A program made the position numbers and the translations under genes. From an uncultured Myxococcales bacterium (GTDB taxonomy: Bacteria; Myxococcota_A; UBA9042): a DNA stretch of 64,000 nucleotides. Below, one piece after another: positions 2,811-63,203 of the stretch. Positions within the stretch are counted from its first letter, which is position 1, and each line of letters begins with the position of its first letter. Below the pieces are notes generated by a model that saw only the letters and a list, made by a program, of their open reading frames with translations, was not told the DNA's origin and searched no databases. The DNA is taken from assembly GCA_903840165.1 (NCBI GenBank), contig CAIMEY010000002.1, positions 133,109-197,108 on the forward strand. Direction: 5' to 3'.

Positions 2811-2853
2811 CATCCGTCCGCTTGAGTTGAGTCTCCGTCTCGCCGAGGTTCTC

Positions 2854-5800
2854 ATGAATCCTATCGAAATGTCCTGTAAAATCAATGCCTATCGCATCTC
2901 CTTTCGCTTCGCCCAGGCGGGATTCTGGACGTCGCTTGCGGCCTTGGCGCTGCTGCTAGCTGGCTGCGGCAGCGACACGCCGGTCGCGGGAATTAGCGTT
3001 ATGGGCGATGCAACGGTCGACGCGGGACAAATTGACGGACTGACGACGGATTCTGACGTCTCGACTCCGGCAGACAGCACGGCTGTTGGCGGTGACGCCG
3101 TTGCTGTCGATGCAGTGGACACTCAAGATCTTGGAATTACGGATCAAATCGACATTGTCGCGCCTGATGCAGACGCAGTTGCCGATGACGCAGCGGACAT
3201 CCAGGTGCCCGATAACGGCGACTTGGACCAGGTTCCCCCTGACGGCTCGGATCAGGACGTCCCTCTGCTTGACGCCCAAGATGCTACGGTTACAGAGGAT
3301 TCCGACACGGGCGTTGAAGATTCTGCCACGGACTCGGGTTCCGCTGAACTGCCCATCGATCAAGACGTGCCGCCGCCGGCTTGCGTCACGGATACCGATT
3401 GCCCTGTCGCTGTAGGACTTTGCACCGGATCGGCCTGCGTTGCTGGCCAGTGCGTCGCCAAGGCTGCGGCCGATGGCACCGCCTGCGTGACTGCCGACGC
3501 GTGCACGGTCGGTGCCGTCTGCATCACAGGGCAATGCCTAGGGAATCTCAAGGTCTGCGACGACGGCAAGGTCTGCACGGACGATAGCTGCGACCCCGTC
3601 TCGGGGGCGTGCACCTTTGTGCCCAAGGCGGGCTGCACGGGCTGTAGTACCAACGCCGAATGCGATGACAAAAACGCTTGTACCGACGATAGTTGCAATG
3701 TCGCCTCCGGGGTTTGCAGCACTTCGGCCAAGGTGGACGGAGCCACTTGCGACGACGGCAACTTGTGCACGACGACCGACGCCTGCCAAAAGGGCGCGTG
3801 CATTGGTCAAGCAGTTGTTTGTAATGATAAAAACGCTTGCACCATCGACAACTGCGATGCCACGACCGGCAAGTGCCTCGCTACGAGCGAGCCCGATGCA
3901 ACCCCCTGCGACGACGGCAACGCTTGTACTACGGCCGATGCCTGCGCGGCTGGGAAATGCCTAGGAACAACAATAGTTTGTAATGACCAGATTTCTTGCA
4001 CCGCGGACAGCTGCGACGCCTTGACCGGCAAGTGTGTGTTTGCGGCGATCGCTGGTTGCGTGCCGGCCTGCCAAAGCAATGCCGACTGCAATGACCAAAA
4101 TGCTTGCACAACAGATAGTTGCACCGCCGGCAAGTGTGTTAGTGTCAATGCGGACGGTGCCGCCTGCGATGATGCCAACGCCTGCACCACCGGCGACGTC
4201 TGCACGGGTGGCAGTTGCGCCGGTGCCGCGATGGTTTGCGATGACGGAAATCCTTGTACAACAGATAGTTGCAAGAATGGTGCCTGTGGCTTTACCCAAC
4301 AGATCGGCCCCTGCGACGATGGCGACGCTTGCACCAACAATGACGTGTGCAAGGGGATCAAGTGCGTCGGCACGGCTCTGACCTGCAACGACAATAATCC
4401 TTGCACAACCGATGCTTGCGTGGCCGGTCAATGCAGCAGTTCGCCGATCAATGGCCCCTGCGACGACGGCGACGCCTGCACGTCTGCGGACTCGTGCCAG
4501 AACGGCAAATGCGTTGGCCTCGCCAAGGTTTGCGACGACGGCAACCCTTGCACCGCAGATGCCTGCCAAAATGGCGGCTGCGTCTTTGTCAACGCGGACG
4601 GAAAAGCCTGTGATGATGCCAATGTCTGTACTGCCGGCGACACCTGCACCGGCGGCCTATGCGTGGGCGGCGCTGCCACGGTCTGTGATGACAAAAACGT
4701 TTGCACGACGGATAGTTGCAACTCCAAGAAGGGTTGTGTCTTCATCAATGCCGATGGCACGCCTTGCGACGACGCCAATCCTTGCACCTCGCCCGATGCT
4801 TGCTCGGCTGCCAAGTGCGGCGGAACGTTGATTTCCTGCAGCGACAATGATCCTTGCACGGCCGATAGTTGCGACCCAGCGACCGGCAAATGCAGCTCCA
4901 AGCCGATTCTGGGCTGTGGCGACAACTGCGCGGCGAACAGCGACTGCAATGACAATAATGCTTGCACAACCGATACTTGTGTCGCGGGCAAGTGCTCGAT
5001 CGTCAACGCCGAGGGCTTGGCCTGCACCGACGGCAACGCGTGCACGCAAAATGACCTGTGCACGGGCGGCAAGTGCGTCGGCGGCACAGCTGTCAGCTGT
5101 GACGATGGAAACCCTTGCACCGTAGATACTTGCAACGCAGCGACCGGCAAATGCAGCAGCGTCAACGCCAGCGACGGCACGGTCTGCACCGACAATAACG
5201 TCTGCACCACCAGCGACCAATGCCTCGGCGGCAAATGCGCCGCCACACCCATTTTGTGCAACGATAACAACGTCTGTACCAGCGATGTCTGCGACCCTGT
5301 CAGCGGCAAGTGCGGCTACACGCCCGTGCAGGACGGCACGGCCTGTTCGGATGGCAACGCCTGCAGCCAAAATGACGCTTGTTCCAAGGGCACTTGCACC
5401 GGCCTAGCGGTCAACTGCGACGACGGCGACCCTTGCACCACGGACGCGTGCAACCCGCAGTCGGGCGCCTGCAGCCACACGGCCATTCCCAACTGCATCG
5501 CGCCCTGCAACAACAACAACCAGTGCAATGACAGTAATCCTTGCACAACCGATAATTGCGCTGCCGGCACCTGCGCCCACGCCGCCAACAATGCCGGTGC
5601 TTGCACGGACAATAACCTTTGCACAACCGATGGTTGCAGCGCGGGAAGCTGCGTGTCCGTCGCCATCGTCTGCGATGATAAGAATCCGTGCACGGTGGAC
5701 AAGTGCGACGTCGCCTCGGGGCAGTGCGTCAGCGCCGCTGGCCCGGACAACAGCGCCTGCGACGACGGAAACCCCTGTACTACGCCCGACTTATGCAAGG

Positions 5801-8619
5801 CGGGCAAGTGCACCGGGGCCGGCGCAGTTCTGTGCAACGATGGCGACCCCTGCACCACCGACGCCTGCGACGCGGCCACCGGCAAGTGCACGGCTTCGCC
5901 CATTCCCGGCTGCGGCGGAAACTGTGCAACGGTCCAAGATTGCAACGATAACAACGCCTGCACCAGCGATGCCTGCACCGCCGGCAAGTGCGTCAACACC
6001 GAGTTGACGGCAACGCCCTGCGACGACGGCAACGCCTGCACCAGCGGCGACGTTTGCACCACCGGCAAGTGCGCCGGACCAACGCCGAAGGTCTGCAACG
6101 ACAATAACACTTGCACAACAGATAGTTGCGACAAGGTCACCGGCAACTGCGTCTACACCAACGTTGCCGACGCAACCGCTTGCAATGACGGCCTTTTGTG
6201 CACAATTGGTGATGCCTGCACCGCGGGCAAGTGCGGTGGAACGGCAACCCCTTGTAATGACAACAATGCTTGCACGCTGGACGTGTGCAACCCCAACACG
6301 GGCATTTGCCAGTTTACGGCGATCCAGAACTGCGGCACGCCTTGCCTGACCGTTCAGCAGTGCAACGACAATAATGCTTGCACAACAGATGCTTGCACCA
6401 ACTTCCAGTGCGTTCACAAGCCCGCAGCCAATGGCGGTGCCTGCAGCGACAACAACCTCTGCACCACTGCCGACGCCTGCAACGCCGGTGTTTGCCAAGG
6501 CATAGCAACCACTTGCAACGACAACAATGTTTGCACCAATGACACCTGCCAAGCCGGCACGGGCAACTGCGTCTATGCCGCCGGAACCAATGGCAATCCG
6601 TGCAATGACAACAATCCCTGCACGTTGACGGACGCTTGCCAGGCGGGCACCTGCGTCGGCTCGGGCCTACTGCCTTGCAACGACAACAATGGTTGCACCC
6701 TGGATAATTGTGATGCCAAAAGCGGACTTTGCGTCTACGCGCCCATCAACGGCTGTGGTGGCAACTGCCTTGCGGCCAGCGACTGCGATGACAAGAATGC
6801 CTGCACGACCGACGCCTGCACGGCAGGCAAGTGCACCAACACCGCGCAAACAGGCACAAATTGTAGCGACGGCAATGCCTGCACCGTGGCTGACACCTGC
6901 CAAGCGGGCAACTGCATTGCTGGAAAGGCGGTCGCGTGCACGGACAACAACGTCTGTACCACGGACGCCTGCGATACCAATACGGGTTTGTGCGTCTACA
7001 CGGCCTTGGCTGCGGGCGCTCCGTGCACTGACGGCGTCGCCTGCACCAACGGCGACAACTGCACCGGCGGCAAATGCGTAGGCACCAATGTAGTTTGCAA
7101 CGACAATGACGCATGCACCACCGACGCGTGCGCAGCGGCGACGGGGCTCTGCGTCTACACGCCGATTGCTGGCTGCGGTGGCAATTGCATCCTGAATTTG
7201 CAGTGCAATGACCAAAACCCCTGCACCGGCGACGCTTGCACGGGCGGCAAATGCACCCACACCTTCCCGGCGGGCGGCAATTGCAATGACGGCAACGCTT
7301 GCACCACTGGCGACACTTGTGCCGGTGGCGTGTGCGCAGGTACACCCAAGGCGTGCAATGACAATAACCCTTGCACAACGGATGCTTGCAATGCAAACAA
7401 CGGCAACTGTGTCCACGCCGCTGCCGCTAACGGCACGGGCTGCGACGACGGCAACGCTTGCACAGGCGCTGACGCTTGCGCGGCTGGCACCTGCACGGGC
7501 GTGGCTACCAACCAGTGCAATGACAATAACGTTTGCACGACGGATGCTTGCAACACACTGACCGGTGTGTGCACCAACACCGCCATCGCCGGTTGCGGCA
7601 TCAAGTGCGTCCTCAACGCCGATTGCAATGATGGCAACAGCTGCACGACCGACGTCTGCACCGCCGGATCCTGCGTGATTACCAAGCTCAACGCCACGGC
7701 CTGCGAGGACGGCAACCTCTGCACCACCCTGGACACCTGCGTCACCGGCGTATGCACCTCGGGCAAGGCCGTGAATTGCAATGACAACAACGTTTGCACC
7801 ACGGAGGCTTGCGACGCCAAGACCGGCCTGTGCGCCGGCCAGAACGTCGCCAACGCAACGCCGTGCAATGACGGCACCAACTGCACCACCGGCGACGTCT
7901 GCACGACCGGCAAATGCGCTGGCAAAGCAGTGGTTTGCAACGACGGCAACCCGTGCACCCTGGACAGCTGCGGCGGCAACAACGGCAATTGCCAGTTCCA
8001 GGCCATCGCCAACTGCAACGCCAACTGCGCCAGCGATGCGCAGTGCGCCGACAACAACATCTGCACCACCAACACCTGCACTGCCGGCAAGTGCGCAGTG
8101 ACCTATGCCGACGGAACTCCTTGCACAGACAACAACTTGTGCACGGTTGGCGATATTTGCGCCATCGGTCGCTGCGTCGGCACCGCCACCAACTGTGACG
8201 ACGGCGTGGTCTGCACCACCGACACTTGCGTCGCGGCCAGTGGCGTTTGCAGCCACACAACCCAGCAAAATTGCGGACCTGCGTGCACACAGAATGCAAC
8301 GTGCAATGACAACAACGTCTGCACCGTCGACGCCTGCAACACCTACACCGGCAACTGCGTCAACCAGGCGATTCCCAACTGCAATCCGGTGCCCCAGTGC
8401 ACGCTCAACACCGACTGCAATGACAACAACGTCTGCACCCTGGACACCTGCAACGCCAGCAACGGACAGTGCGTGTTCACCAACATCCCGGGCTGTAATC
8501 CCAATGCCCAGTGCAAGTTGGACGCGGACTGTAACGACAACAACGTCTGCACGGTCGACTACTGCGACACCTTCAACAGCACCTGCCAGCACATCGTCTT
8601 GCAGGGCTGCGTGCCGTAG
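2854..8619 (+). CDS. Giant Cys-rich repeat lipoprotein (~45 tandem myxo-type C-x-D-x-N-x-C-T-x-D-x-C repeats)
   Basis: ORF 2827..8619 (1930 aa). GAGG sits 5 nt upstream of the ATG at 2854. N-terminus MNPIEMSCKINAYRISFRFAQAGFWTSLAALALLLAGCGS has a basic n-region, a hydrophobic core and an LLAGC lipobox. A D/T/V-rich acidic linker follows, then ~40-aa Cys repeats along the whole length (e.g. CDDGNPCTTDACD, CNDNNVCTTDAC). Antisense ORFs (e.g. 6667..8592) are artefacts. Confidence 0.9.
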   Translation: MNPIEMSCKINAYRISFRFAQAGFWTSLAALALLLAGCGSDTPVAGISVMGDATVDAGQIDGLTTDSDVSTPADSTAVGGDAVAVDAVDTQDLGITDQIDIVAPDADAVADDAADIQVPDNGDLDQVPPDGSDQDVPLLDAQDATVTEDSDTGVEDSATDSGSAELPIDQDVPPPACVTDTDCPVAVGLCTGSACVAGQCVAKAAADGTACVTADACTVGAVCITGQCLGNLKVCDDGKVCTDDSCDPVSGACTFVPKAGCTGCSTNAECDDKNACTDDSCNVASGVCSTSAKVDGATCDDGNLCTTTDACQKGACIGQAVVCNDKNACTIDNCDATTGKCLATSEPDATPCDDGNACTTADACAAGKCLGTTIVCNDQISCTADSCDALTGKCVFAAIAGCVPACQSNADCNDQNACTTDSCTAGKCVSVNADGAACDDANACTTGDVCTGGSCAGAAMVCDDGNPCTTDSCKNGACGFTQQIGPCDDGDACTNNDVCKGIKCVGTALTCNDNNPCTTDACVAGQCSSSPINGPCDDGDACTSADSCQNGKCVGLAKVCDDGNPCTADACQNGGCVFVNADGKACDDANVCTAGDTCTGGLCVGGAATVCDDKNVCTTDSCNSKKGCVFINADGTPCDDANPCTSPDACSAAKCGGTLISCSDNDPCTADSCDPATGKCSSKPILGCGDNCAANSDCNDNNACTTDTCVAGKCSIVNAEGLACTDGNACTQNDLCTGGKCVGGTAVSCDDGNPCTVDTCNAATGKCSSVNASDGTVCTDNNVCTTSDQCLGGKCAATPILCNDNNVCTSDVCDPVSGKCGYTPVQDGTACSDGNACSQNDACSKGTCTGLAVNCDDGDPCTTDACNPQSGACSHTAIPNCIAPCNNNNQCNDSNPCTTDNCAAGTCAHAANNAGACTDNNLCTTDGCSAGSCVSVAIVCDDKNPCTVDKCDVASGQCVSAAGPDNSACDDGNPCTTPDLCKAGKCTGAGAVLCNDGDPCTTDACDAATGKCTASPIPGCGGNCATVQDCNDNNACTSDACTAGKCVNTELTATPCDDGNACTSGDVCTTGKCAGPTPKVCNDNNTCTTDSCDKVTGNCVYTNVADATACNDGLLCTIGDACTAGKCGGTATPCNDNNACTLDVCNPNTGICQFTAIQNCGTPCLTVQQCNDNNACTTDACTNFQCVHKPAANGGACSDNNLCTTADACNAGVCQGIATTCNDNNVCTNDTCQAGTGNCVYAAGTNGNPCNDNNPCTLTDACQAGTCVGSGLLPCNDNNGCTLDNCDAKSGLCVYAPINGCGGNCLAASDCDDKNACTTDACTAGKCTNTAQTGTNCSDGNACTVADTCQAGNCIAGKAVACTDNNVCTTDACDTNTGLCVYTALAAGAPCTDGVACTNGDNCTGGKCVGTNVVCNDNDACTTDACAAATGLCVYTPIAGCGGNCILNLQCNDQNPCTGDACTGGKCTHTFPAGGNCNDGNACTTGDTCAGGVCAGTPKACNDNNPCTTDACNANNGNCVHAAAANGTGCDDGNACTGADACAAGTCTGVATNQCNDNNVCTTDACNTLTGVCTNTAIAGCGIKCVLNADCNDGNSCTTDVCTAGSCVITKLNATACEDGNLCTTLDTCVTGVCTSGKAVNCNDNNVCTTEACDAKTGLCAGQNVANATPCNDGTNCTTGDVCTTGKCAGKAVVCNDGNPCTLDSCGGNNGNCQFQAIANCNANCASDAQCADNNICTTNTCTAGKCAVTYADGTPCTDNNLCTVGDICAIGRCVGTATNCDDGVVCTTDTCVAASGVCSHTTQQNCGPACTQNATCNDNNVCTVDACNTYTGNCVNQAIPNCNPVPQCTLNTDCNDNNVCTLDTCNASNGQCVFTNIPGCNPNAQCKLDADCNDNNVCTVDYCDTFNSTCQHIVLQGCVP

Positions 8620-8711
8620 GTCCTGACCATCATCCTGATCGCCTTGGCGGACCGCGGACGTGCAAAATGTGCACTTCGCGGGCGCCGATCAAGCCTGCAG
8701 CAGGAGCGTTC

Positions 8712-10073
8712 ATGGCCCCGACAGTGCGGATGCGCGCGATTGTGTTGACATTTTCAGTGCTTGGCGCCTGCCATTCGGCCACCCCGGCGGCTCCATCCGC
8801 GTCTGCCGATGCCACGTCCTCAGATGGTACCACCACGGCGCAAGACATTGTTTCCTTAGGTGATTCACCAACAGCTGATACGGCAAAGGCTGATGCAGCA
8901 AGTGGCGACGTGACCACGACCAGTGGCGACGCGCAGGCCTTTGTGCCGACCGTTCATCCGGACCTGCCCCAAGTGCTCAACATGGGCGGAAAAGTTCTTA
9001 CTAATCCGCGTGTTGTGCCAGTGCTCTACAGCGATGACCCCTATGGCGCGGACGTGCAGAAACTCCTGCAGCAGATTGCAGCAAGTACCTATTGGCCAAC
9101 GATTGCCAGTGAGTACGGCGTCGGTCCTTTGCAAGTAGGTTCGCCGATTCTGCAATCCGGCAAGGCGCCGGCCAAGTTGGCAGAAGGCGACACGTTGGCG
9201 TGGCTGGACAAGGGCTTGGCAGATCCTAGCACGCCTTGGGGCAAGGTGGATGCGAACACCATCTATATGCTCGTGATTCCGCCGCAGACGGACTTCATTT
9301 CCGGTACAGGGAGTGACGCTGTGTCCTGTTGCGCGGACCGCGGTGGCTACCATGACGAAGTGCAGCTCGCCGGTACCTTGGTACCCTATGCCGTGGTTTG
9401 TGCCTGTGCTTACCCGGAGTTGGGACTCAATGCCTTGGACGACCTGACCTCGACCATTGCCCATGAACTCATCGAGGCCGCCACAGACCCCTTTAGCGTC
9501 AGCGCGCCGGCCTTCAGTCAGCAGAGCAACGCTGATGCCGCCTGGACCGATATTTCCGACGGCGAGGTAGGGGATCTCTGCGAATTTAATCAGGATAGCA
9601 ACATCCACGTTTCGGGCATTGATTACCTCGTCACCCGCAGTTGGTCCAACCTTGCGGCGGCGGCGGGTCATGAGCCCTGCCTGCCATCGCCCGACCCGGG
9701 GCCCTATTTCGCCGCGGCGCCTTTGGTCAAGGATACTGTGAACATTCTGGATTTCCTCGGCAATCCGGTGCAGGCCAAGGGTGTCAAGATTGGGCTGGGG
9801 CAAAGCCGCACGGTGGATGTGCAACTCTTTAGTGACGGGCCGGTTTCTGGGCCCTGGCAGGTCAAGGCCTATGATTTTGAACAGGAAATTCAAGGACAAG
9901 CCAAGCCCAAGCTGGCCTTCACCTGGGATAAGAGCACCGGCAACAACGGCGATGTGCTGCACCTAACCATCCAAGTGCTGGCAACGGATAGCAATTGGGG
10001 CGGAGAGCTGTTCCTCATCGAGTCCAAGCTCGGCAGTCGCACCAGTGAATGGATGGGCGTCGTTGGCCAGTAG
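8712..10073 (+). CDS. Hypothetical secreted lipoprotein
   Basis: ORF 8667..10073. Internal start MAPTVRMRAIVLTFSVLGACHS (signal peptide with LGAC lipobox). An A/S/T/D-rich linker is followed by a ~400-aa globular region with no motif I can assign (HELIEA is present but is not HExxH). Confidence 0.55.
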   Translation: MAPTVRMRAIVLTFSVLGACHSATPAAPSASADATSSDGTTTAQDIVSLGDSPTADTAKADAASGDVTTTSGDAQAFVPTVHPDLPQVLNMGGKVLTNPRVVPVLYSDDPYGADVQKLLQQIAASTYWPTIASEYGVGPLQVGSPILQSGKAPAKLAEGDTLAWLDKGLADPSTPWGKVDANTIYMLVIPPQTDFISGTGSDAVSCCADRGGYHDEVQLAGTLVPYAVVCACAYPELGLNALDDLTSTIAHELIEAATDPFSVSAPAFSQQSNADAAWTDISDGEVGDLCEFNQDSNIHVSGIDYLVTRSWSNLAAAAGHEPCLPSPDPGPYFAAAPLVKDTVNILDFLGNPVQAKGVKIGLGQSRTVDVQLFSDGPVSGPWQVKAYDFEQEIQGQAKPKLAFTWDKSTGNNGDVLHLTIQVLATDSNWGGELFLIESKLGSRTSEWMGVVGQ

Positions 10074-10194
10074 CAAGGCACCGCTGCGCCGCAGACGTAC
10101 AACCGGCAAAGAGCTTGAAAGGCAAATGGTTTAATGACTGCGCCCAGTGCGTAGGCACTGGGAAGCACGCAACCGCTCGTCGCTTCACGACCCC

Positions 10195-10386
10195 CAAGTA
10201 CCTCAAACCCGAAGTTCCTTGCGGGTTCGAGGCACAGTGTTGGCTTCTAGTTTCAGCGGGGCCCGCGGCCCCCCTCGCCCGCCCGCGAGGGCTCACCCCT
10301 GCGTTCGGCCGGGTCCCCGGCTGCAAAGTCCACAACGCCGAGTCCGTTGCGGTAACCCGCAAAGGACTTAGGGTTACGTGTACTAG
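10195..10386 (-). repeat. Copy A of a MITE/REP-like repeat element (CTAGTAC-type terminal inverted repeats, internal hairpins), inverted relative to copy B at 37559-37805
   Basis: The reverse complement of 10195-10386 aligns along its length with 37559-37805. Shared blocks: ctagtacacgtaaccc..., ...ccgcaggggtgagccc..gggcgggcg..., ...tgaaactagaagc.aacactgt.cctc.aacccg..aggaacttcgggtt.gagg. Terminal hairpins include cctcaaacccg/cgggttcgagg. The right end GTGTACTAG contains the TAG stop of the SPOR gene. Confidence 0.55.
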
Positions 10387-12191
10387 TTCGCCGTTTGAAT
10401 CAACACGGTTTCGCCGCCCACAGCCGTTTCAAAGCCCTTCTGCGCCGCCTTGGCAGCGGCCTGATCGGCAAAGGGCCCGAGGCGCACGCGGTAAAAGGTG
10501 CCCTTCTCGGGAACTTCGCCAGCAAATACAGCGGATTTCATGCCCTTGGCAGTCAGCATTTCGGCAAAGGAATCGGCGTCTGCCTGGGTCCGAAAGGACT
10601 TCACCTGCACCATCCACTTGCCGCCGGCATTCTTGTTGCCTGAGGCCGCCCCCTTGGCCTCGCCTTTTCTCTGCGGCTGAACTGCCTTGGCTGCGGCTTG
10701 GCGCTCTGCTTCTGCCTTTTCCTGCGCCGCCTTGTCCCTGTCTGCCCGGTCCTGGTCGGCCTTGGACTTGGCCGCCTTCTCCGCTTGAGCGCGCGCCTGG
10801 GCTTGTTTGGCCGCCACCTGCTCCTGTGCTTGCGCTTGCGCCTTGGCCGCCTTTTCCTCAGAGGCCTTCTGCTCGGCCGCCTTCAGGTTAGACTGCCTCT
10901 CAGATTCCTTCTTTCCTTTCAAAGCTTTGGCTGCTGCCACCTTGTCACGCTCGGCCTGGGCCTTGGCCGTCTTCTCGGCCGCAGCCTTTTCGGTCGCGGC
11001 CTTCTCTGCAGCTCGCTTGTCCGCTTCTTTCTTTTCTTTCGCAGCCTTTGCCGCAGCCACCTTGTCGCGCACAGCCTTGGCCTTGGCAGCCTTTTGCGCC
11101 AGCGCCTCTTGCTTAGCAGCCTTCTCCGCGGCAATTCGCTCGGCTTCTTCCTTTTCTTTCGTGGCCTTGGCTGCTGCCACCCTTTCCTTGGCCGCCTTTG
11201 CCTTGGCCGCCTTGTCAGCCAATGCCTTCTCCTTGGCGGCCTTCTGCGCTGCTAGGCGTACGGCGTCCGCTTGGGCCTCGGCCGCTCTTTCGGCTTCTGC
11301 CCTTTCTTTCGCGGCCTTGGCTGCTGCCGCCTTCTCGGCCGCGGCCTTTTCCTTGGCGGCCTTTTCTGTTGCAGCTTTGACGGCTTGCTGCCGTTCTCGG
11401 GCTTCCTTCTCCGCTTTAGCCCGTTGTTCTTCGGCCTTGCGTTCGGCTTCGGCCCGGGCGGCCGCGGCTTCCCGTTCAGCCTTGGCACGCAGTTCCGCTG
11501 CCTCACGTTCAGCTTTTACACGTAATTCTAAAGCCTTACGGTCCGCTTCGGCCTTGGCTTCTGCCGCACGTTTGGCCGCTGCAGCGTTCTCGAGCGCAGC
11601 CGCCTCCTGGGCTTTTGCAAGTTCAATCGCCGCCTTGCGCTTCGCCTCGGCCTCTGCCTTTGCCGCAGCTTCTTCCCGGGCTTTGCGTTCGGCAGCTGCT
11701 TTTTCCGCAGCGAGCCGTTCTGCCTGGGCCTTCCTTGCGGCGAGTTCCTTCTCTTCTGCAGCCTTTTCAGCAGCTTGAGCCGCGGCCGCACGACGGTCCG
11801 TCTCAGCCTTTTCAGCGGCGGCACGTTGGGCGGCGAGGGCTTGTTCGGGCACATCGGCGTGGGCACTTGCCGGCAGCATTTTAGCTACATGATCAGCAGG
11901 TTGCGGGAGTGGCTCTGGAGGCGGATTGAGCGGGGCCGGAATGATCGGGGCCTCCGCCTTTGCTCTAGGTGCCGCGGCAGGGGGAAGGGCAACCTCAGGC
12001 GTCGCCTCAGCTTTTGGCGGTGTCTGGCTGCCTTGCGCCACGGGTGGCGGCTCTTGACGGCCTAGGTGGTAGCCCACAGCGAACGTCACCGCCAGCGCCA
12101 CAGCACCGACGATGCCAAAGCGCAAAATGTCCCGCACTTCCAGGTGCAAAATCAAGCGTTCGCGCACGCGGTCAAAGTCGCGCAGGGCCAT
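10383..12191 (-). CDS. SPOR-domain protein (FtsN/DamX/TolA-like): N-terminal TM anchor, long Ala/Lys/Glu-rich repetitive helical region, C-terminal SPOR peptidoglycan-binding domain
   Basis: 602-aa ORF. MALRDFDRVRERLILHLEVRDILRFGIVGAVALAVTFAVGYHLG (TM segment). ~400 aa of degenerate AEKAAKEKA repeats. C-terminal WMVQVKSFRTQADADSFAEMLTAKGMKSAVFAGEVPEKGTFYRVRLGPFADQAAAKAAQ is a SPOR-domain signature. Confidence 0.85.
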   Translation of the reverse strand: MALRDFDRVRERLILHLEVRDILRFGIVGAVALAVTFAVGYHLGRQEPPPVAQGSQTPPKAEATPEVALPPAAAPRAKAEAPIIPAPLNPPPEPLPQPADHVAKMLPASAHADVPEQALAAQRAAAEKAETDRRAAAAQAAEKAAEEKELAARKAQAERLAAEKAAAERKAREEAAAKAEAEAKRKAAIELAKAQEAAALENAAAAKRAAEAKAEADRKALELRVKAEREAAELRAKAEREAAAARAEAERKAEEQRAKAEKEARERQQAVKAATEKAAKEKAAAEKAAAAKAAKERAEAERAAEAQADAVRLAAQKAAKEKALADKAAKAKAAKERVAAAKATKEKEEAERIAAEKAAKQEALAQKAAKAKAVRDKVAAAKAAKEKKEADKRAAEKAATEKAAAEKTAKAQAERDKVAAAKALKGKKESERQSNLKAAEQKASEEKAAKAQAQAQEQVAAKQAQARAQAEKAAKSKADQDRADRDKAAQEKAEAERQAAAKAVQPQRKGEAKGAASGNKNAGGKWMVQVKSFRTQADADSFAEMLTAKGMKSAVFAGEVPEKGTFYRVRLGPFADQAAAKAAQKGFETAVGGETVLIQTAN

Positions 12192-36191: not shown

Positions 36192-36920
36192 AATTACGTC
36201 CGAATCCAGGGCGTTTGGGGCTGCTGCCTCGTGCTTCTTGGGGCCAGTGTAGCCCTGCGCGCCGGCCCCGCCAGCGCGATCAGCACGAGCCTACGCGTCA
36301 TGCGAAGTTGGCGATTCCGCCCTCGCCGCGTCATGCACATGAGAAGTGGAATCGATTGAAATTACGATAAAATTGCCGTTCTACCATCGACAGACCGACG
36401 ATCCGAGCCCGGTGGTTTAGGATTATCGCCCAGTCCTGCCTACTTGAAAGGGAGGTGCGCCTTGGCCGCCCGGGCTGTGTGATCCGCTCGGTCTGAACGA
36501 CATGACTACATCTGCTTAATATAGAAGCGAAATGCTCGAACTCGGGGGCCTGATCGATCCCGGGACCCAGGCGTGCGCGCCTCCCCGGCCAGTCCAGGTC
36601 GACCTGTTGGGCCGGCCACCTCGCAAAGAGCCGTTGCATCCCGAGCCACAATTCGCAATACTGCAGGCTGCTGATTGAGTTGCGCTGCCGCATTCCGCCG
36701 CGCCGCCCACCAGCGATCCCGCGCTCCTGACGCAAGACCGCTTTCACCGGATCAACCGGCCAGCCTCTGCGCAAGAGTTCGTTTCCTGAATGGACTGCTG
36801 CACCGCAAAGGCGGTGCGGCCAAGGCCCGCGGCCAGCCCTCCGGCCTGCCCCTGTTTGAGCGCAAGGCAGCTGAAAAAAGGAACAGTTAGCCATAGTTGC
36901 TCGTGCCCGTGGAGAGATGC

Positions 36921-37562
36921 ATGTATCAGGTTGGCGATGAAACCGAAGGCTTTTGCCCGCGCTGCCGCCTCAACACCTACCAAGTCATTGCCGCCACCGA
37001 TGGTGAAACAATCCAGTCGGTTGCGTGCCGCACCTGTCGCAATACCTTCGCGCATCGGCGGGAGGTCACAGAACAAGAAGTTCGCCAAAACAACCTGAAG
37101 AAGCTGGCAAAAATGCAAAAGTCGAGAATGCCGTCCCCCGCCCCAGAAGTGCTGACCCGCGGACGACGAAAAGTGAGTGATTTTGACCGCCAACTGCAAG
37201 CACTGGCTCAGCTCAATGGCCGAGATCCAGTCGAACAAGTGCAGGAATTGTCTGCAGATGCCCGGGCACGCAGCGCGGTGTCCCAAGCCGCCTCAGGCAC
37301 AGCCGCGACCGTCGAGCCCGCAACCAGTGGCGCTGCATTGGAGAATCAGGCCCCCGGCGAGCGCTGGAAGGCATTGACGGCTCCTCTAGGCTGGCGCGAT
37401 GGCAAGCCCTACAGCGCGCAAAAAACCTATAAAGAGGGCGATGTTGTGCTGCACAAAGCCCTGGGAATGGGCATTGTCGAGCAGGTCGTTCACGATCACG
37501 CCTGCCTAGTACTGTTTCGCGATTCGCAGACGGTGCTGGAAATGGCAACTCCGCTGAGCTAG
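36921..37562 (+). CDS. Hypothetical protein with N-terminal Cys4 zinc-ribbon (CPRC...CRTC)
   Basis: ORF 36897..37562. MYQVGDETEGFCPRCRLNTYQVIAATDGETIQSVACRTCRNTF, then a low-complexity linker and a C-terminal ~60-aa conserved-looking domain. Its TAG stop lies within the CTAG terminus of repeat copy B. Confidence 0.5.
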   Translation: MYQVGDETEGFCPRCRLNTYQVIAATDGETIQSVACRTCRNTFAHRREVTEQEVRQNNLKKLAKMQKSRMPSPAPEVLTRGRRKVSDFDRQLQALAQLNGRDPVEQVQELSADARARSAVSQAASGTAATVEPATSGAALENQAPGERWKALTAPLGWRDGKPYSAQKTYKEGDVVLHKALGMGIVEQVVHDHACLVLFRDSQTVLEMATPLS

Positions 37563-37805
37563 TACACGTAACCCCAAGTGCTTTCCGGCAACCCGCAAGG
37601 CCCTTGGGGTTGTGGACTTTTAGCCGGGGCCGGCCGACCGCAGGGGTGAGCCCGCACGGGCGGGCGGGGGAGGACTCCGCGGTGCGCGCAGCGCATGAGC
37701 TGTGCCAAGTCTGGCACGGCGAAAGTGGAGATGGCGCGCCCCCTTGAAACTAGAAGCAAACACTGTTCCTCTAACCCGCCAGGAACTTCGGGTTAGAGGT
37801 ACTAG
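37559..37805 (+). repeat. Copy B of the MITE/REP-like repeat element (CTAGTAC ... GTACTAG termini; ~55-bp extra internal segment relative to copy A)
   Basis: Starts ctagtacacgtaaccccaag, ends cctctaacccgccaggaacttcgggttagaggtactag (11-bp perfect stem). A nested 9-bp stem aaccccaag/cttggggtt lies near the left end. A central G-rich block ggggtgagcccgcacgggcgggcggggg is shared with copy A. Confidence 0.55.
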
Positions 37806-37835: not shown

Positions 37836-38651
37836 TTAGGCGTGGACGATTGTGCGCAAACCCGCTGCACCGTCGATATAGGCAGCCACGGCGTCGTCGT
37901 CCTTGTATCCGACAATCGCCACTTGCTTGGCCCCGAGGCGCAGGATTTCAGCGACCTCTTCGAGCTTGGCCACCATGCCGCCGTGCACCGCACCTGAGCT
38001 GATCAACTGAGGAATTTCGTCAGCGCTCAGCTCGGCGATGTGGCTCGCCGGGTCAGCTAGCTCGCGGAATACGCCTGGCACGCCGGTGACGAGCACCACG
38101 TCGTCGATTTTCGCCGCCTTGACCAAGGCCGTTACCAGGGTATCCGCATTGAGATTGAGCAGTTGGCCACACGGATCGCAGACCAGGGACGATAGAACCG
38201 GCACATAATCGCCCTGCCACAACGTCTGCAGCAAGCGGCCATCGGCATGGACCACATCGGCAACTAGACCAAAATCAACGGGTTCAGCCTCGCCGGCCAC
38301 TTCGCGCGGGGGCCTTTTGCGTCCGACGACCAGCAGACCACTCGCCGCCGGGAACGCTACGGCAGGCAGTCCCGCGCCCAAACACGCCGCTAGCAGTGCC
38401 GGAGCCACTTCGCCGCCCATCGCCAAGGTCACGGCTTGCAGCATCGCCGCATCGGTCACCCGGCGTCCACCGCGAAAAACAGAGTCGATTCCAAGCCTTT
38501 TTCCCATCGCCGTGATCTGCGGGCCAGCGCCGTGAACGACGCAGAGGTGCACGCCGCGCTCATGCACGCCAGCGAGGTCCGCGGCCAAGCGATCCCGATC
38601 CTCTTGTTTCTGAAGCGTTTCTCCGCCCACTTTCACCAGTACTTTGCGCAT
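37836..38651 (-). CDS. argB: Acetylglutamate kinase
   Basis: 271 aa. KVGGE..., VVHGAGPQI, ...AVHGGMVAKL motifs typical of N-acetylglutamate kinase. Confidence 0.9.
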   Translation of the reverse strand: MRKVLVKVGGETLQKQEDRDRLAADLAGVHERGVHLCVVHGAGPQITAMGKRLGIDSVFRGGRRVTDAAMLQAVTLAMGGEVAPALLAACLGAGLPAVAFPAASGLLVVGRKRPPREVAGEAEPVDFGLVADVVHADGRLLQTLWQGDYVPVLSSLVCDPCGQLLNLNADTLVTALVKAAKIDDVVLVTGVPGVFRELADPASHIAELSADEIPQLISSGAVHGGMVAKLEEVAEILRLGAKQVAIVGYKDDDAVAAYIDGAAGLRTIVHA

Positions 38652-40027: not shown

Positions 40028-43000
40028 TCACGTCTCCAGCAGGGCCGCGCGCGCTTCCTTGTGCCCTGGTACCAGAGCCAGCGCATCCTCAAAGCAACTG
40101 CGGGCTTGGGCCGTTTGCTTACGCTTGAGGCGACAATTGCCCATGCCGACAAAGGCATCTGCGCGCACTTGCGCCTTGGTGCCAGGTCGTCGCGCCACCG
40201 CGTCAAAGAGCCTCATCGCTCGGTCCATGTCGCCAGCGCCAAGGTGAGCCCGTGCACAACCAAGGATCGCCTCTTGCTCATCTACCTGAATTTCCAAAGC
40301 TTGGTGGTAGTGGGTCCGCGCCGCCGCATAATCGTGCGCACCCTCAGCCGCATGGCCCGCCTGGATCAACCGAGCAAATCGCCCGGAATCGTCCAGGGTT
40401 TCATGCGCCAAGAGCCACTGGCTTAGCTGCAACGCCGCATGGAAGTCGCCGCTTGCTTGTAGCAGTGGCAGCAGCAGCGCATCGAGTTGCACGGTATCGC
40501 CGCCCAGGACATGGGCTTTTCGCAATGTGCTTGTCGCTTCCGTAACTTGCCCCAACTGCAGTTGAACCTGGCCCAGTTCAACATGCAAATCAAGCAGTTC
40601 ACCGCCCAACTCGAGGCGCAGCGTCGACCGTCCATCGCCATCTGCCAAGGCGTTGATCCACTGACGCAGCGATTCTGCTAATGCTTCATGGGAGTTCCGT
40701 GCCGCATAAAGGTCGCACAGCTTGCGCCGCGCCGCCCAGCGCTTCGGGTCCAGGCTCAAGAGCCGCTGATATTCCTTGATGGCCTTGCCCGGATTGTTCT
40801 GGCGTGTCGCATACAGGTCCGCCAATTGCTGATGCAGAACAATCTGTTCCTGTGGGTCTTTGCTGTCCCGCAGCAGCGCTTCCAGGCCCGTCAACGCCTG
40901 CTGCGCGTCGCCACTGCTGGCCTGCATCAAGCGTTGCACGTGGCGGGTAGCAGGATCACTCGGCGCAGATTTCAGCAGCAATTGCATGTGCTTGTCTGCG
41001 CTTGCTTCGTCATTCAGCTCCGTGAGCAGCACGCGAATCAGTTGCGCTTGCAGGGCGACGTGCCCGTCCTTGCGGGCCTCCTTGGCTAGGCGGTGCTCCG
41101 CGGCTTGGACCCAGGCGGCCCAGACCCGATGCTGATCGGCGATTCGCAGCAATTCATCAACAAGTACGGGGTTTTCAGCGTCATCCCCGAGGGCCGTCCT
41201 CAGCGCCTCGCAGGCCCCGTTGCCGTCTCCCCGCTCCGAACGCGCCTGCGCCAAACGCCGCAGGGTCAGCGTGCGCGTCGGCCCTGGCTGTAAGTGCTTA
41301 GCACGCAAGGCATAGAGCGGTTCCAGGCGTCGCGCCTCGTGGCCGGCTTGGCGCTCGAGGAACACAAAAGCCTCATCGTGGCCAGGGTCAGCGCGAAATG
41401 CTTCTTCATACAGGTCGTTGGCTCGATCTGCGTTCTTCAACTCGCGTGCCTGCAACCGCGCGGCTTCACAAAGGTGATCTGCACGCTCGACCGACCCGGC
41501 TGTGATGCGTGCAAGGACGACCAGGCTAGCTGCTAATGCCTGGGGATCATTGCGATCGCGCAGCAAATCAACGAGTTCCGCGTGGGCCTGTGGGTCATGG
41601 GCATCTAGGTCGCATAAGGCGCGCAGGGCGGCAACAGCGTCGTCCAGCTTGTCCAAAGTGCGAGCCAGACCCGCCACCCGGTGCAGGCCTAGGCGTTTCC
41701 GGTCTAAATTTTCAAGCCTTGCCACTCGACTCTGCCAAGCGCCGAGCAGGTCGGTCCAGCGTTCAGCCGCATCGTAGAGCGTCTCTAGCATCTCAAATGC
41801 ATCGTCATCTTCAGGGCTTCCCTGCACTAGGGTAACGAGGTGCCCCTCTGCCTTCTTGGTATCTCCCGCTTCAATCGCCTGTTGCGCTGCATAATGAAGG
41901 ACTTGCGCGAGATCACTGGGCGAAAGCGGTGCCGCCAGCACGGCAGCTGTTGCCTCAGCCAGCACGACACTGTCCTGGGGAAGCCGGGCAGCGTGGCGAA
42001 GTGCCAGCCACGTTGCGACGGACGGACTCGCACGCAGGGCGGCCGCCAGCGCTTGCACACCGTGGCCCAGATTGCTGGCGTGATTGGTTTCAATCCACGT
42101 GATTTCTTTGGCAATTTCCGACTGAGCTGCCGAATTCTGCGCCTTTTGCAGCTTGACCTGCAGCAGTTGCAGCACGCCGTCCCATTGCTGAGCGCCGCGC
42201 AAAAGCGGTTCGAGTTCGGCCAGGGCCTCGGCCTGCGTCGCCGGTTCAGCCGCCAACTGTAGGCCCAGGGCGACGGCGTCCGATTGCGTGGGATCGACGC
42301 GGAGCACATCGAGGACTAGGCGAAGCGTTTGGCGAGGTCGGCCGAGGAACCGTTCAATATCAGCAAGTTCCAAGCGCCACGCATTGACGTCGCCGGTTCC
42401 GAGCATGATCGCACGGGCCAGGTCTCGACCCAGCGCCGCTGCATCCCCAGACTCGCGACGGCAGGCCAACGTCGCTTCGCAGGCGTCCAAGTTGTCGGAG
42501 TCCTGGTCCCAGACCAGCGTCCATAAGTCAGCAGCTCGACTAGATAATCCGGCTTCTCGGCCAGCACCTGCGGCCAAGGATACCGCGTCGGACATGGCCT
42601 CGGGCGGTACCTCTTCGGCCGAAAGGGCGTCAAAGACTTGGTCCAGCCAAGCCTCGACCAAGTTGCCAGTGCGGGCGATATCCGAAGAAAGCGCAATCGC
42701 TTCAAGCGGTTCAACGCCATCGCGCACCTGGTCCATCAGCAAATCCAAGGCGTCTTGGTGTTGGCCAAGGTCATCGGCCACAGCCGAAGCCAGTGCCCGA
42801 CCTGCAGCCCCGCGCTCGGAGGCGGGCAGGGCAGCAAGCGCCATTTGCTGAATCTTCACAGCGAGATCGGCATGGCCTACTTCGCGAAGAATGGGCACTA
42901 GGGTCTCAGACGTTGCCGCCAGTAAGCCCTCATGGGATGCGTGGCTATTGAGAAATGCCCACAACTCAGCACTTTGCGGTGCAACAATAACGACTTGCGC

Positions 43001-46000
43001 CAAGTGACCGACGGCATCGCCGACATCCTCGGCCTGCAGGGCTAGCGCCGCGGCCTCTACACGCAAGGGTACAGAATCTAAGTCGTTCATGCCCTCGAGT
43101 GCATCGAGCCATGCCAATCGAGCCGCACCGATGTCGCCGACCTTGGTGAGCGCCCGCGCGTGCAGCACACGCATCGCCGCATGGTTTGGCTCTGCTTGTA
43201 GGACTCGCTGCGCAGCCAACAGTGCCTCAGGCCACCGGTTTTGTGCCGCCAGGGCCGTTGCGACCGCCGCAGACTCAGCCGCTTGCAGTCGATCTCCCAG
43301 GCGCCGCCCAAGGTCAATAAGCAGTTGTTGATCCAGCTGTTCCATGGCAACAGCCAAACGCGCGCGCAGGGGAGCCTCGGCCTGCGGACTCAGGGCCAGG
43401 GCGGCGTCGAGGGCGTGGATCTGATCGCCCACATCCTCGGTCAACGCCGCGATTTCCAACCAGAGTTCGGCTGCTGCGTCAGGCGTCTTGTCTTGCAGTT
43501 GCTCGGCCCGCGTTTGCAGGTGGTGGCGCAGCGCCTCCGCATCGCCTTGAGCCCGTGCGTCCGCCTCGAGCCAAGCCTGCGCCGGGGCCTGATCTGAAGT
43601 AGATGCTGCCAAAAGCCCGGCAAATACGCGGGCTTGCTCGGTCAGCTCCTCATGTCCCCGGGCCAGCGCAAAGCCGGTTTGTGCAATCGCGTCGGCGTCT
43701 TCGCGCCCGGCATCGGCGATGTCGAGCAAGCTCGCCGTGGCGACTGCGGCAGAATCTACTGATTGTGCTACAGTTTCAAGCGCTTGCAATACTGAATGAA
43801 TGGGTGCCGGGGTCAAAGCCTGCAGCAACCATTGCAGGGCCTGATCGGCATCCTTCAAATGATCGCGTGCGAAAATGCCTAATTCCAACCAATTATCGCG
43901 GGCTTGCGCAGGCTCGAGGTACTCACTCGCCAGCAAATGGGCTTGAAGCCATGAGTCGGGGTCTCGGTCCGGATTCACGTCGGCTAAACGCCATTGAATC
44001 GCCGTCTTGGCTTGGTCCGGCTTCAGCTCGGCAAGGCTCATGGCCAAGCGCGTCACTGCTTCACTGGTCGCCCTGGTTTCTGCCCCCAGATCACGAATTT
44101 CAGCAATGGCGGCAAAGAGTTCAGGCGCAGCATTCTGTTCGATCAGTTGGCGGGCCAGCAGGCGCAGCACCGTGGGCTGATCCCCTTGCTGCCTAGCCTG
44201 GGCCAGGGCCTGCTGAACGCGCGCAGCATCCTGACCACGTAGCGCATCGGCTTGTTCGTCCAAGCCCGCGGAATGCGCCATTTGCGTTGCAATTTCAAGC
44301 CAATGTGATGCATCTGCCGCGCCGGGTTCCGCCTGCAAGAGCTCATCGATCAAAGCGAAGCCTGCAGCGCTCTGTCCGAGGTAACGGTGCAGAATCTGTG
44401 CTAGTTCTACCTGAACCTGTTGGTGCTGCTGGACCGTTCCCGTGCGCAGCAGACTCAGACGCAGGTGGTCGGCCAGACGCGGCCAACGGTCGCTCTCGGG
44501 TAGCTCCTGTAACGCCGCGGCGCGCAAGGCGAAAGCCTCGTCGTGGTGCGCGTCCTGAGCCAGAACCAGGTCGAGCACATCGACCATCCGCGCAAAATCA
44601 TTGCGGGCATAGGCGCGTTCGGCCAACTTCAGGCGCTCGGCCGTTCTCTGCTGATCATCGGCAAGCCATTGACTTGCATCGCGAACGATGTCGTCGATGT
44701 CGCCGCCTTGGTCCATCGCGTCTGCAAGGCGGAGCACCTCAGCCACGGCTCTGTTGTGCCACGTGCCGTCCAGCAGGGGCAGCCACGTGCCCAAGGCCGC
44801 GCCAAGGTCGTGCAGGGAATTCTCAAACACGGACGCTAGGTTGGCGCGGATCTCTTGCTGTGAATTGCCCTCGGAAATCGGCACGGTTGCCAGGAGTCCC
44901 TGCAAAGCAGCGGCTTGTGTGGCAAAATCGCCGCGATCTCGTGCTGATTCGGCCCACAAGTTGAGGGCAAAATGCACGACCTGCGGATCGCCAGATTCAC
45001 TGAGATTCTGAAGGGTTGCGTCGCTTAGCTTGGGCTCAACTAGCAGGGCCAAACGCTTGACGGCGCTCTTGGCGGCCTCCGCGGTCGGGGCGCTGGCCAG
45101 AAAAGTGCAGGCCGCAGTAAAGGCGCCAGCAATATCAGATTGTTGTGCCTCGCGCAGCGCAATCAAACGTTGCCACGCGGCGCCATCACCGGCCTCGCCC
45201 CGGCGTTGCAGGACGGTCGCCAAACTGGCCGTGTCACCGCGCATGTCGAGCAACTGCTCGAGGCGATCGGCCTGAATCGACAGGGAAAGATCGACCCCAG
45301 CCTCGGCCGATTTCAGCCAATTACCAAGGGCTTGCGTGGCTGCTTGGTCCTGTCCAGGATCGCTGTCCAGCGCCTGCAGCCAGTGGTCCAGCGCGGCGCG
45401 CGGATCGGCTCCCCGCTCAAGGAGATCCGCCAATTCAAGACGCCAAATCTGTAGTTGCGCCGCATCCACATCCGCTGCCGGTTGCTTGAGGCGCAACTGC
45501 AGTTCGGTCGCTAGGGCCTGGGGCGTGTCCCATTGGCGAATGGCATCAAGAACCGCCGCGGCAACTTCCTGACTTTCGGGAAGATTCTCGCGCGCGCGCC
45601 TCAAAGCATCCAGCGCCTCAGCGGGGGATTGCCGCTCATCGCTGTGCAGGGCCGCCAGGCGCAGCCAACTCATCATGCGATCGTCGGCACTTAGGTCGGC
45701 GACGATTCGCTGCTCGAGCGCCAAAGCCAGCGCGTCCAAGTCATTGGATTCACGCAGTAATGTCTCAAGCTCTTCGTGCAAATCGTGGCGATCGGGCACC
45801 AGCTCCAAGAGCCATCTCAACACGATGGCGGCCAGGTCGCGGTCGCCCTGCCCAAGCGCGCGCTGCACCGTCAATTGCCCCAAAACTACAGCTTTTTGGC
45901 GGTCTTGCAGGACCGTCACCTCGTCCTGGGGCGCAAGGCCCAGGGCTGCACAGGCTAGGCCCGTCCATTCGCCCGGCCTCTCGGCTGCATCGGCCAAATC

Positions 46001-61528: not shown

Positions 61529-61602
61529 GTCCCCGTAGCTCAGAAGGATAGAGCGTTCGCCTCCTAAGCGAAAGGCCACAGGTTCGATTCCTGTCGGGGA
61601 CG
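61529..61602 (+). tRNA. tRNA-Arg (anticodon CCT)
   Basis: GTCCCCGTAGCTCAGAAGGATAGAGCG-TTCGC-CTCCTAA-GCGAA-AGGCCACAGGTTCGATTCCTGTCGGGGACG. 7-bp acceptor stem GTCCCCG/CGGGGAC. Anticodon loop CT-CCT-AA. GTTCGATTC T-loop. CCA not encoded. Confidence 0.85.
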
Positions 61603-61688
61603 CCCGCATGACGGTCCGGCCCACGCCGAGTCCTGCCCCTATTACCCAGCGGCTTGACCGCAACTTCGTCCGCCAAAGGCACCAAAGT

Positions 61689-62966
61689 ATGAGTGAAATT
61701 GAGTCTCCTGCCGCTGATCCTGAATCAGCCGTGCCCCCATCGACCCATGTGCCCCAGACTGAGCTCGCCTTTGAGGAACTGCCCATTCCGGCGCAAATCC
61801 TTCGTGGTTTGGATGACTTAGGCTTTGCCCGCTGCACGCCGATTCAGGCCCGCTCGCTGCCCCACACCTTGCATGGCGCGGACCTAGCCGGCCAAGCGCA
61901 GACGGGGACGGGCAAGACGGCGGCCTTCTTGATCACGATTTTCAAGGAGTTGCTAGAGACTGAGCGCGTCCACCCCACGGCGCCTCGGGCAGTCGTTGTC
62001 GCGCCGACCCGAGAGTTGGCGCTGCAAATTGCCAAAGATGCCGGGGATGTGGGCAAGCATTGCCACTTTCGCACAGTAGCTGTGTTTGGCGGCATGGATT
62101 GGGAAAAGCAGGCCAAAGTGCTCGAGGGCACGGTCGACTTGGTCGTCGGCACGCCTGGGCGCATGATGGACTATATGCGCAAAAAATACTTGGACTTGCG
62201 CCATGTTCAAGTGGTCGTGGTCGATGAAGCCGACCGGATGTTCGACATGGGGTTCGTCGCGGACATTCAGTACATCCTGGGGCACTGTTCGCCTGACCGT
62301 CAGACGCTTTTGTTTTCTGCGACGCTGAGTTACGAGGTCATGCGCCTGGCTCACCAATACATGCGCGAGCCCGTGCAGATTCGCGTTGAGCCCGAGCAAG
62401 TCACGGCCAAGAACGTCGAACAGCGCCTGTACCACGTCTCTGAGCGTGAGAAGATGCCGTTCCTCCTGTATTTGCTGGAGAAACATCAGCCGCGCAAGGC
62501 GCTTGTGTTCATCAATACCAAGCGCGCTGGTGAATGGCTGAACTTTAAGTTGTTTCACAATGGCTGGAATTCTGAGTACATGTCAGGCGATATCGCGCAA
62601 AAGAAGCGCCTGCGCCTGGTCGAAGAATTCCGCGAGGGCAAGATTGAGGTCCTGGTCGCAACCGACGTAGCTGCGCGTGGTCTGCATGTGGATGATGTTG
62701 ATCTTGTAGTGAATTTTGACTTGCCGCTGGATGCCGAAGATTACGTGCACCGCATTGGCCGTACCGGACGCGCAGGCCAGAAAGGCTTGGCCCTGGCCCT
62801 GGCCGACGAGGCGTTGGTCGAAAAGCTAGCCGCCATCGAAAAGTACATCGGTCAGAAGCTGCCCGCGGAAATCCATACGCGTGACATGCTGTTAGACGAC
62901 TTGAGTCCGAGTTTCCGTGAAACGGTGCTCAAACACCGGCCGCCACCGCCGCGCCGGCGCCGTTGA
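61689..62966 (+). CDS. DEAD-box ATP-dependent RNA helicase
   Basis: ORF 61608..62966. Start at internal MSEIESPA (clears the tRNA). Q-motif GFARCTPIQ. Walker A AQTGTGKT. PTRELA. DEAD (VVVDEADRM). SAT. HRIGRTGRAG. C-terminal basic tail. Confidence 0.9.
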   Translation: MSEIESPAADPESAVPPSTHVPQTELAFEELPIPAQILRGLDDLGFARCTPIQARSLPHTLHGADLAGQAQTGTGKTAAFLITIFKELLETERVHPTAPRAVVVAPTRELALQIAKDAGDVGKHCHFRTVAVFGGMDWEKQAKVLEGTVDLVVGTPGRMMDYMRKKYLDLRHVQVVVVDEADRMFDMGFVADIQYILGHCSPDRQTLLFSATLSYEVMRLAHQYMREPVQIRVEPEQVTAKNVEQRLYHVSEREKMPFLLYLLEKHQPRKALVFINTKRAGEWLNFKLFHNGWNSEYMSGDIAQKKRLRLVEEFREGKIEVLVATDVAARGLHVDDVDLVVNFDLPLDAEDYVHRIGRTGRAGQKGLALALADEALVEKLAAIEKYIGQKLPAEIHTRDMLLDDLSPSFRETVLKHRPPPPRRRR

Positions 62967-63006
62967 GGATGGCTGCGCGTGCTGGGCTTGCCTCGTCGAC
63001 CTGGGC

Positions 63007-63035
63007 TTGACACCTGCATCACTGCTGCCCATACT
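63007..63035 (+). promoter_or_regulatory. Sigma-70-like promoter (TTGACA-17 nt-CATACT) upstream of tRNA-Leu
   Basis: TTGACA at 63007-63012, 17-nt spacer, CATACT at 63030-63035. ~85 nt upstream of the tRNA 5' end. Confidence 0.35.
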
Positions 63036-63119
63036 GTCCGCCGCTTGCAGACACCTGCGCGGTGCGAGCGGGCAAGGCGAGGAGAGGCCCCTGTGCAGGC
63101 AAACTCCTTGAAAGTCCAT

Positions 63120-63203
<84 letters not shown>

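Follow-up and report, generated by a model that had tools for sequence, protein, structure and literature searches.

A hairpin-rich intergenic element with CTAG-bounded inverted-repeat ends, a candidate member of an undescribed MITE family in an uncultured freshwater bacterium

Correia elements of Neisseria and the ERIC/IRU elements of enterobacteria are orphan MITEs (non-autonomous DNA transposons) that are flanked by TA and co-transcribed with neighbouring genes. They occur in tens to hundreds of copies per genome. REP/BIME elements are located in convergent intergenic gaps. The target of IS630 is the dinucleotide TA within CTAG, according to Tenzen & Ohtsubo (1991) as cited in PMC2170065, and the IS5-type element MITEPsy1 duplicates CTAG (PMC3189936).

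Here we analysed a stretch of 64,000 nucleotides (from here: the window) from an uncultured bacterium that has a GC content of 61% and was repeatedly assembled from freshwater-lake metagenomes. Within this window, a short DNA element that is non-coding, rich in hairpins and bounded by inverted repeats is present in two copies, from here on A and B. No described repeat or RNA family matching this element was found. On balance, we lean towards the view that both copies are members of a previously undescribed MITE family, probably one with a CTAG/TA target that is IS630-like or IS5-like.

Like the Correia and ERIC/IRU elements, the window element lies in intergenic sequence near gene ends, has no known transposase and a strong hairpin potential, and possibly affects mRNA 3′ ends. 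Unlike them, it is documented in two copies only, in 72.4 kb of host DNA, and has no sequence similarity to either. With IS630 and the IS630/Tc1-mariner MITEs it has in common that it is short and non-coding with imperfect terminal inverted repeats (TIRs), and its CTAG-embedded ends fit a TA duplication. Its interior differs from that of IS630-derived MITEs in forming a GC-rich multi-hairpin core instead of a simple fold-back, and neither an IS630-family transposase nor an insertion sequence with its ends was found in the collections searched. The likeness to MITEPsy1 and the IS5 group, in which 4 nt (CTAG or YTAA) are duplicated (PMC3189936), concerns the CTAG target, the size of 100–250 bp and the TIR length of about 18–21 nt, and copy B is equally compatible with an outer CTAG that represents a 4-bp duplication. 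However, the IS5-type end of MITEPsy1, GGAAGGTCTGAAAAAGCC, is unrelated to the TIR of the window element, copy A is flanked by CTAG on one side and by CTTG on the other, and no IS5-type partner was found. The attribution to IS630/Tc1-mariner, which had been made in a reading of the sequence alone, is not favoured over an origin from IS5-type elements, which duplicate CTAG (PMC3189936).

Copy A (10195..10386, 192 nt) is read 5′ to 3′ on the − strand and copy B (37559..37805, 247 nt) on the + strand, where it fills all but 30 nt of its intergenic gap. The two copies are in opposite orientation and 27 kb apart, and their neighbour genes are unrelated. An alignment by MAFFT of A (10386..10195) with B (37559..37805) extended from end to end, with 161 matches, 28 mismatches and 61 gap columns, corresponding to 85.2% identity over the 189 ungapped columns. 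The E values in blastn were 1e-25 (left 131 nt) and 4e-16 (right 66 nt), and nhmmer had the same outcome. The homology along the whole length that the sequence-only reading had claimed for 10195–10386 and the reverse-complemented segment 37559–37805 can be taken as established, and a formally insignificant alignment, which it had named as a possible refutation, did not materialise. The similarity breaks off precisely at the outer CTAG, which in A reads CTTG on the right side, and the flanks beyond are unrelated. As the copies have diverged by 15%, there is no sign of recent activity.

The TIR of the element is the 21-nt sequence CTAGTACnnnTAACCCnAAGT, with 17/21 positions matching between the left and right ends in B and 15/21 in A. 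In B, the left TIR (37559..37579, + strand) reads CTAGTACACGTAACCCCAAGT and the right TIR (37785..37805, − strand), read inward, CTAGTACCTCTAACCCGAAGT; the left end can be written as CTAGTAC-ACG-TAACCC-C-AAGT and the reverse complement of the right end as CTAGTAC-CTC-TAACCC-G-AAGT. In A, the left TIR (10366..10386, − strand) is CTAGTACACGTAACCCTAAGT and the right TIR (10195..10215, + strand), again read inward, is CAAGTACCTCAAACCCGAAGT, in which the outer CTAG has degenerated to CTTG/CAAG. The bounds are thus CTAG...CTAG in B and CTAG...CTTG in A. The TIR had previously been described as CTAGTAC. This heptamer indeed heads the ends, but it is too short, since the real TIR comprises 21 nt, and the right end of A carries CAAGTAC instead, with one mismatch to CTAGTAC. 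Because CTAG is palindromic, a target duplication of TA or CTAG is separable from the element's own ends only where an empty site is available.

Both copies lie between convergent genes. The gap containing A is bounded by the ORF 8667–10073 (+ strand) and an ORF for a SPOR-domain protein at 10383–12191 (− strand; Pfam SPOR, E = 1e-16), the gap containing B by an ORF for a Zn-ribbon-like protein with a CxxC...CxxC arrangement at 36897–37562 (+ strand) and by argB at 37836–38651 (− strand). The left CTAG contains the TAG stop codon of the abutting gene at both copies, of the SPOR gene in A (10385–10383) and of the Zn-ribbon-like gene in B (37560–37562), so that the convergent gaps and the CTAG-supplied stops reported in the sequence-only reading were seen again. 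Relative to the upstream gene that it abuts, A is oriented in the same way as B. The tetranucleotide CTAG is rarer in the window than expected, with 122 sites in 64 kb compared to 225 calculated from the base composition.

Single heptamers of the same sequence occur elsewhere in the window. A further CTAGTAC is located at 37506, inside the Zn-ribbon-like gene and 53 nt before copy B, at chance level, and a lone GTACTAG at 25079 is likewise within chance expectation; neither has an adjacent TAACCC motif. Outside the element, at 10143–10162 and 70 nt past the stop codon of ORF 8667–10073, there is a perfect 8-bp hairpin, CCCAGTGC-GTAG-GCACTGGG, which is likely the 3′-end structure of that ORF.

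The interior of the element consists of conserved blocks that are separated by short GC-rich hairpins. Identical in A and B are the blocks CTAGTACACGTAACCC, GCAGGGGTGAGCCC, CGGGCGGGCG and TGAAACTAGAAGC, and the hairpins stand between GTTGTGGACTTT, GCAGGGGTGAGCCC and TGAAACTAGAAGC. Following the left end, there is a long imperfect subterminal hairpin (B 37566..37614, + strand; A 10331–10379, − strand), in which one compensatory change from C-G to G-C distinguishes the copies. It is followed by a conserved core composed of GTTGTGGACTTT, a GCCGGGG/CCGGC hairpin and GCAGGGGTGAGCCC (B 37609..37653, + strand; A 10289–10336, − strand). Further to the right, a conserved block richer in A and T, TGAAACTAGAAGC, contains an internal CTAG (B 37745..37757, + strand; A 10243–10255, − strand). 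The right subterminal hairpin, CCTCTAACCCG-loop-CGGGTTAGAGG, has a stem of 11 bp (B 37768..37799, + strand; A 10201–10232) and differs in one pair, U-A in one copy and G·U in the other, with the G·U on the element strand. This is the 11-bp hairpin CCTCkAACCCG/CGGGTTwGAGG that both copies have in common, and together with the named blocks it was located in A and B as the sequence-only reading had stated. In the left hairpin, the conserved motif TAACCCnAAGT belongs to the stem; in the right hairpin, part of it falls into the loop. The interior CTAG was also considered as the border of a nested small element; this was rejected as the 55-nt right part lacks inverted ends of its own.

The difference in length between the copies is mainly due to one event, as 58 of the 61 gap columns correspond to a single GC-rich insertion of 58–59 nt that is present only in B (37675..37733, + strand) and lengthens a GGGGG/CCCCC stem apically. 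The insertion has its own hairpin, GTGCCA-AGTC-TGGCAC. One Logan contig (L020) stops at the edge of the insertion (37737), within the 8-nt palindrome GGCGCGCC. A reading frame that is open and conserved in both copies was not found.

The window was extended by 8.4 kb upstream, taken from another assembly by exact-protein look-ups, giving the 72.4 kb mentioned above. Sensitive searches of the window and this upstream part returned neither a third copy nor a fragment. All assemblies of the host species contain both copies at identical spacing, and among them we found neither an empty site nor any presence/absence polymorphism. For the Zn-ribbon-like protein next to the element, the nearest orthologue has 54% identity and a different synteny; the element was not found after orthologues of this gene in relatives, which at 54% identity or less and without synteny are too distant to inform. 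Two assemblies are broken on both sides of A and two contigs end inside B. These breaks were considered as a sign of high copy number, but this was rejected: the megahit contigs of another assembly end exactly in hairpin loops, one in the hairpin at 10143–10162 (position 10151) and one in the right hairpin of the element (position 10211), which is an artefact of the assembly of palindromes and does not constitute evidence for a repeat.

The search for further copies and for a partner transposase covered several public collections. The TIR pattern was used to scan 185,579 species-representative genomes (GTDB) and the JGI metagenome collection, and the host genome is not included in either. In the JGI metagenomes, the TIR pattern detected only elements of the Chloroflexi type described below plus chance matches. 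In IMG/VR, the TIR and three interior patterns gave chance matches only, and among 72,556 plasmids (PLSDB) blastn of copy B returned nothing above chance and there was no TIR match. All open frames of the two copies were also joined into a 750-aa chimeric query, which at E ≤ 10 had no match among 5.8 billion proteins and so did not reveal spurious ORFs that could stem from further copies. No transposase was found between CTAGTACnnnTAACCC ends in the GTDB representative genomes, the JGI metagenomes, IMG/VR or PLSDB, and no transposase domain in the 26 window ORFs scanned. Searched for as a string in the literature, the terminus led only to unrelated primers.

In the GTDB genomes, the TIR pattern occurred nine times, each time on another contig, in one Ardenticatenaceae (Chloroflexota) metagenome-assembled genome (MAG), CAZRIB01 (L004–L006, L008, L009, L012, L015, L016 and L018); it was also detected in a further Chloroflexi MAG and in one Alphaproteobacteria MAG, besides about six chance matches. 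In addition to the nine loci, two other Chloroflexi contigs carry the Chloroflexota element, which is also recorded at L013/L027 and L028. The Chloroflexota element comprises 87–120 nt, and its left end CTAGTACACGTAACCCGAAGTCC is identical to the left end of copy A in 22 of 23 positions, including three positions that were unconstrained in the search pattern. Where complete, the copies have GTACTAG as their right end and form a single long hairpin along their entire length. The first 65 nt on the left hardly vary (CTAGTACACGTAACCCGAAGTCCGTATACCGTTTTCCGACGAAATTACCAGAGG); after them come GGATTAC/GAATTAC/TGAATAC heptamers whose number differs between copies, and the element finishes on the right with GGGTACTAG or in degenerate form. 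Contig ends harbour many of these copies, as is observed for multi-copy repeats. Three of about ten copies resemble the window element also in that their left CTAG contributes the TAG stop of the gene upstream. About eight copies are co-oriented with the neighbouring gene and three are not, a bias that is not significant. This fold-back repeat is apparently undescribed as well. Apart from its terminus it differs from the window element in its smaller size, its single long hairpin, its GGATTAC-like heptamers, a GC content of about 50% and a non-homologous interior.

The Alphaproteobacteria MAG CAVTGA01 contains a 72-nt palindromic element (L010, 4938–5009) that starts with CTAGTACCCCTAACCCGAAGTTC and ends with CACTAG. 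Its start is identical to the inward-read right end of copy B in 22 of 23 positions, and the element is bounded by CTAG...CTAG and forms a 12-bp hairpin (z = −3.5). No Rfam family matched the Chloroflexota or Alphaproteobacteria elements at E ≤ 1. The interiors of both are unrelated to that of the window element, with the ends alone in common. Short, structurally different repeats in distant lineages that have only an end of about 21 nt in common are what one expects where this end is bound by a transposase that spreads horizontally. Such sharing of nothing but a terminus across lineages is unlike an RNA gene.

This last point bears on a reading of the element as a structured non-coding RNA, either a structure in the 3′ UTR or an sRNA that arises by processing of the mRNA upstream, which we hold to be unlikely. 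According to it, the element strand (− for A, + for B) is co-transcribed with the gene whose stop codon it holds and serves in mRNA 3′-end stabilisation or in the termination of convergent transcripts, and the CTAG ends possibly form a closing helix. Such a role agrees with the identical orientation of both copies to the abutting upstream gene, and the element strand folds below shuffled controls, with z = −4.0 for A and −4.5 for B. The hairpins are kept at 15% divergence, with the C-G to G-C and the G·U to U-A changes; in a GCCC/GGGC hairpin the loop differs (TCGC versus GCAC) and the stem is kept, the 58-nt insertion lengthens an existing stem, and no difference occurs in the blocks between the stems. 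Differences between A and B thus fall partly into loops or are compensated in stems, which selection on a structure would bring about too. However, the compensatory changes amount to 2 base pairs in a comparison of two sequences and have no statistical weight, and perfect runs of 12–21 nt are expected at 85% identity. The strand test was uninformative, as the RNAalifold consensus energy was alike on both strands (−60.3 versus −61.5 kcal/mol). When the whole window was compared with Rfam at the gathering threshold, only two tRNAs passed, and copy B gave chance matches only at E ≤ 10, the best with 19.5 bits against a threshold of 65.9. Neither a sigma-70-like promoter in either gap nor, on either strand of the two gaps, a terminator-like site with hairpin and U-tract was found, although in GC-rich bacteria terminators can lack the U-tract, so that a terminator-like effect is still conceivable. 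Against an RNA also speak relatives with about 50% identical orthologues that lack the element after the same gene, and the terminus with 22 of 23 identical positions on the structurally different Chloroflexota fold-backs is hard to explain by RNA structure alone. On the bidirectional terminator or sRNA that the sequence-only reading had offered as an alternative, the evidence decides neither way; a U-tract terminator, a sigma-70 promoter and an Rfam family are missing. A bolder reading would be that the 21–23-nt terminus CTAGTACnnnTAACCCnAAGT marks an undescribed cross-phylum group of elements, present in this lineage, in Chloroflexota and in Alphaproteobacteria, that home to CTAG where it holds a TAG stop codon. 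Those of this lineage would bring along a conserved RNA with several hairpins, co-transcribed as 3′ UTR of the gene at which they insert, and would thus be mobile 3′-UTR modules with a function in mRNA 3′-end formation or stability, moved by a transposase still to be linked to such ends; we regard this as quite improbable.

The placement in convergent gaps, as for REP/BIME, and the subterminal hairpin directly after the conserved heptamer at each end would also suit a REP/REPIN-like element, in which two inverted hairpin modules headed by CTAGTAC are mobilised as single-stranded DNA by a RAYT or an IS200/IS605-type Y1 transposase. This is very unlikely in our view, because TAACCCnAAGT is kept as a sequence and not in its hairpin geometry, being in the stem on the left and partly in the loop on the right, and the Chloroflexota relatives lack a local end hairpin and fold end to end. 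Moreover, the element, at 190–250 nt and with its complex interior, far exceeds REP doublets in size, and no RAYT or other Y1 transposase was seen in the window. It is possible, too, to think of A and B as the relic of a single duplication of an intergenic segment within this 27-kb neighbourhood, neither mobile nor part of a family. Only two copies in 72.4 kb, placed 27 kb apart, and none in two large public collections are what such a relic predicts, but the host genome is not in the scanned collections. The flanking sequences and genes are unrelated, the copies are inverted, the bounds fall exactly on CTAG at the inverted-repeat ends and the same terminus is found on multi-copy repeats in other phyla, all of which leave a relic with a very small probability indeed.

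The assignment to a MITE family has the strongest support of these readings. Both copies (192 and 247 nt) have the small size, below about 500 bp, and the absence of a conserved ORF that characterise MITEs, and they have TIRs with 17/21 (B) and 15/21 (A) matching positions; none of the defining features of MITEs that were tested failed. What the sequence-only reading had proposed in this respect gains from the 21-nt TIR, the sharp CTAG bounds and the multi-copy terminus across phyla, while the search for a transposase with matching ends remained without a hit. The homology, the inverted ends, the sharp CTAG bounds, the lack of coding capacity and the recurrence of the terminus on multi-copy repeats are observations, whereas mobility, the kind of transposase and a possible influence on transcripts are inferences. 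In the proposed mechanism, a transposase encoded elsewhere in the genome would bind the ends of about 21 bp, CTAGTACnnnTAACCCnAAGT, and the element would be inserted by cut-and-paste into the palindromic target CTAG, upon which either TA (in the style of IS630/Tc1-mariner) or CTAG (in the style of IS5) would be duplicated. The element proper may start with G and end with C, according to the scheme C-TA-[GTAC...GTAC]-TA-G, by which both junctions would again become CTAG. As a consequence of these terminal nucleotides, an insertion into a C-TAG stop would rebuild the TAG and hence be harmless. Insertions within genes would be lost, which would account for survivors that are placed on stop codons between convergent genes. 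In this mechanism, the internal hairpins rich in GC would be cargo, with a possible secondary use as 3′-end structures for the flanking mRNAs.

If confirmed, the window element would define a new MITE family with an end sequence common to at least three distant bacterial lineages and a preference for TAG stops. Its recognition would be of use in the annotation of MAGs, in which such repeats break assemblies and create false ORFs, and in tracing the horizontal spread of the partner transposase. It would also provide an example from nature of insertions by which a stop codon is both hit and restored. Bacteria commonly contain orphan MITEs of such a general type, so that no long-standing question is opened by it.

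Some further features of the window and its upstream extension may be mentioned. Three giant, secreted-looking proteins of 1930, at least 2930 and 1374 aa are encoded at window positions 2827–8619 and, upstream, at positions 1–2566 and 5577–9701 of L033. The 1930-aa protein of the window has Cys-rich CxDxNxCTxDxC repeats (Pfam Dicty_CTDC, E = 1e-30). A TPR-type protein of 3264 aa is encoded at 40028–49822. Towards the end of the window, two tRNA genes at 61529–61602 (70.9 bits) and 63120–63203 (57.3 bits) flank a DEAD-box helicase gene (61608–62966). The mechanically called ORF 62979–63830 overlaps the second of these tRNA genes, so that its true start must lie later.
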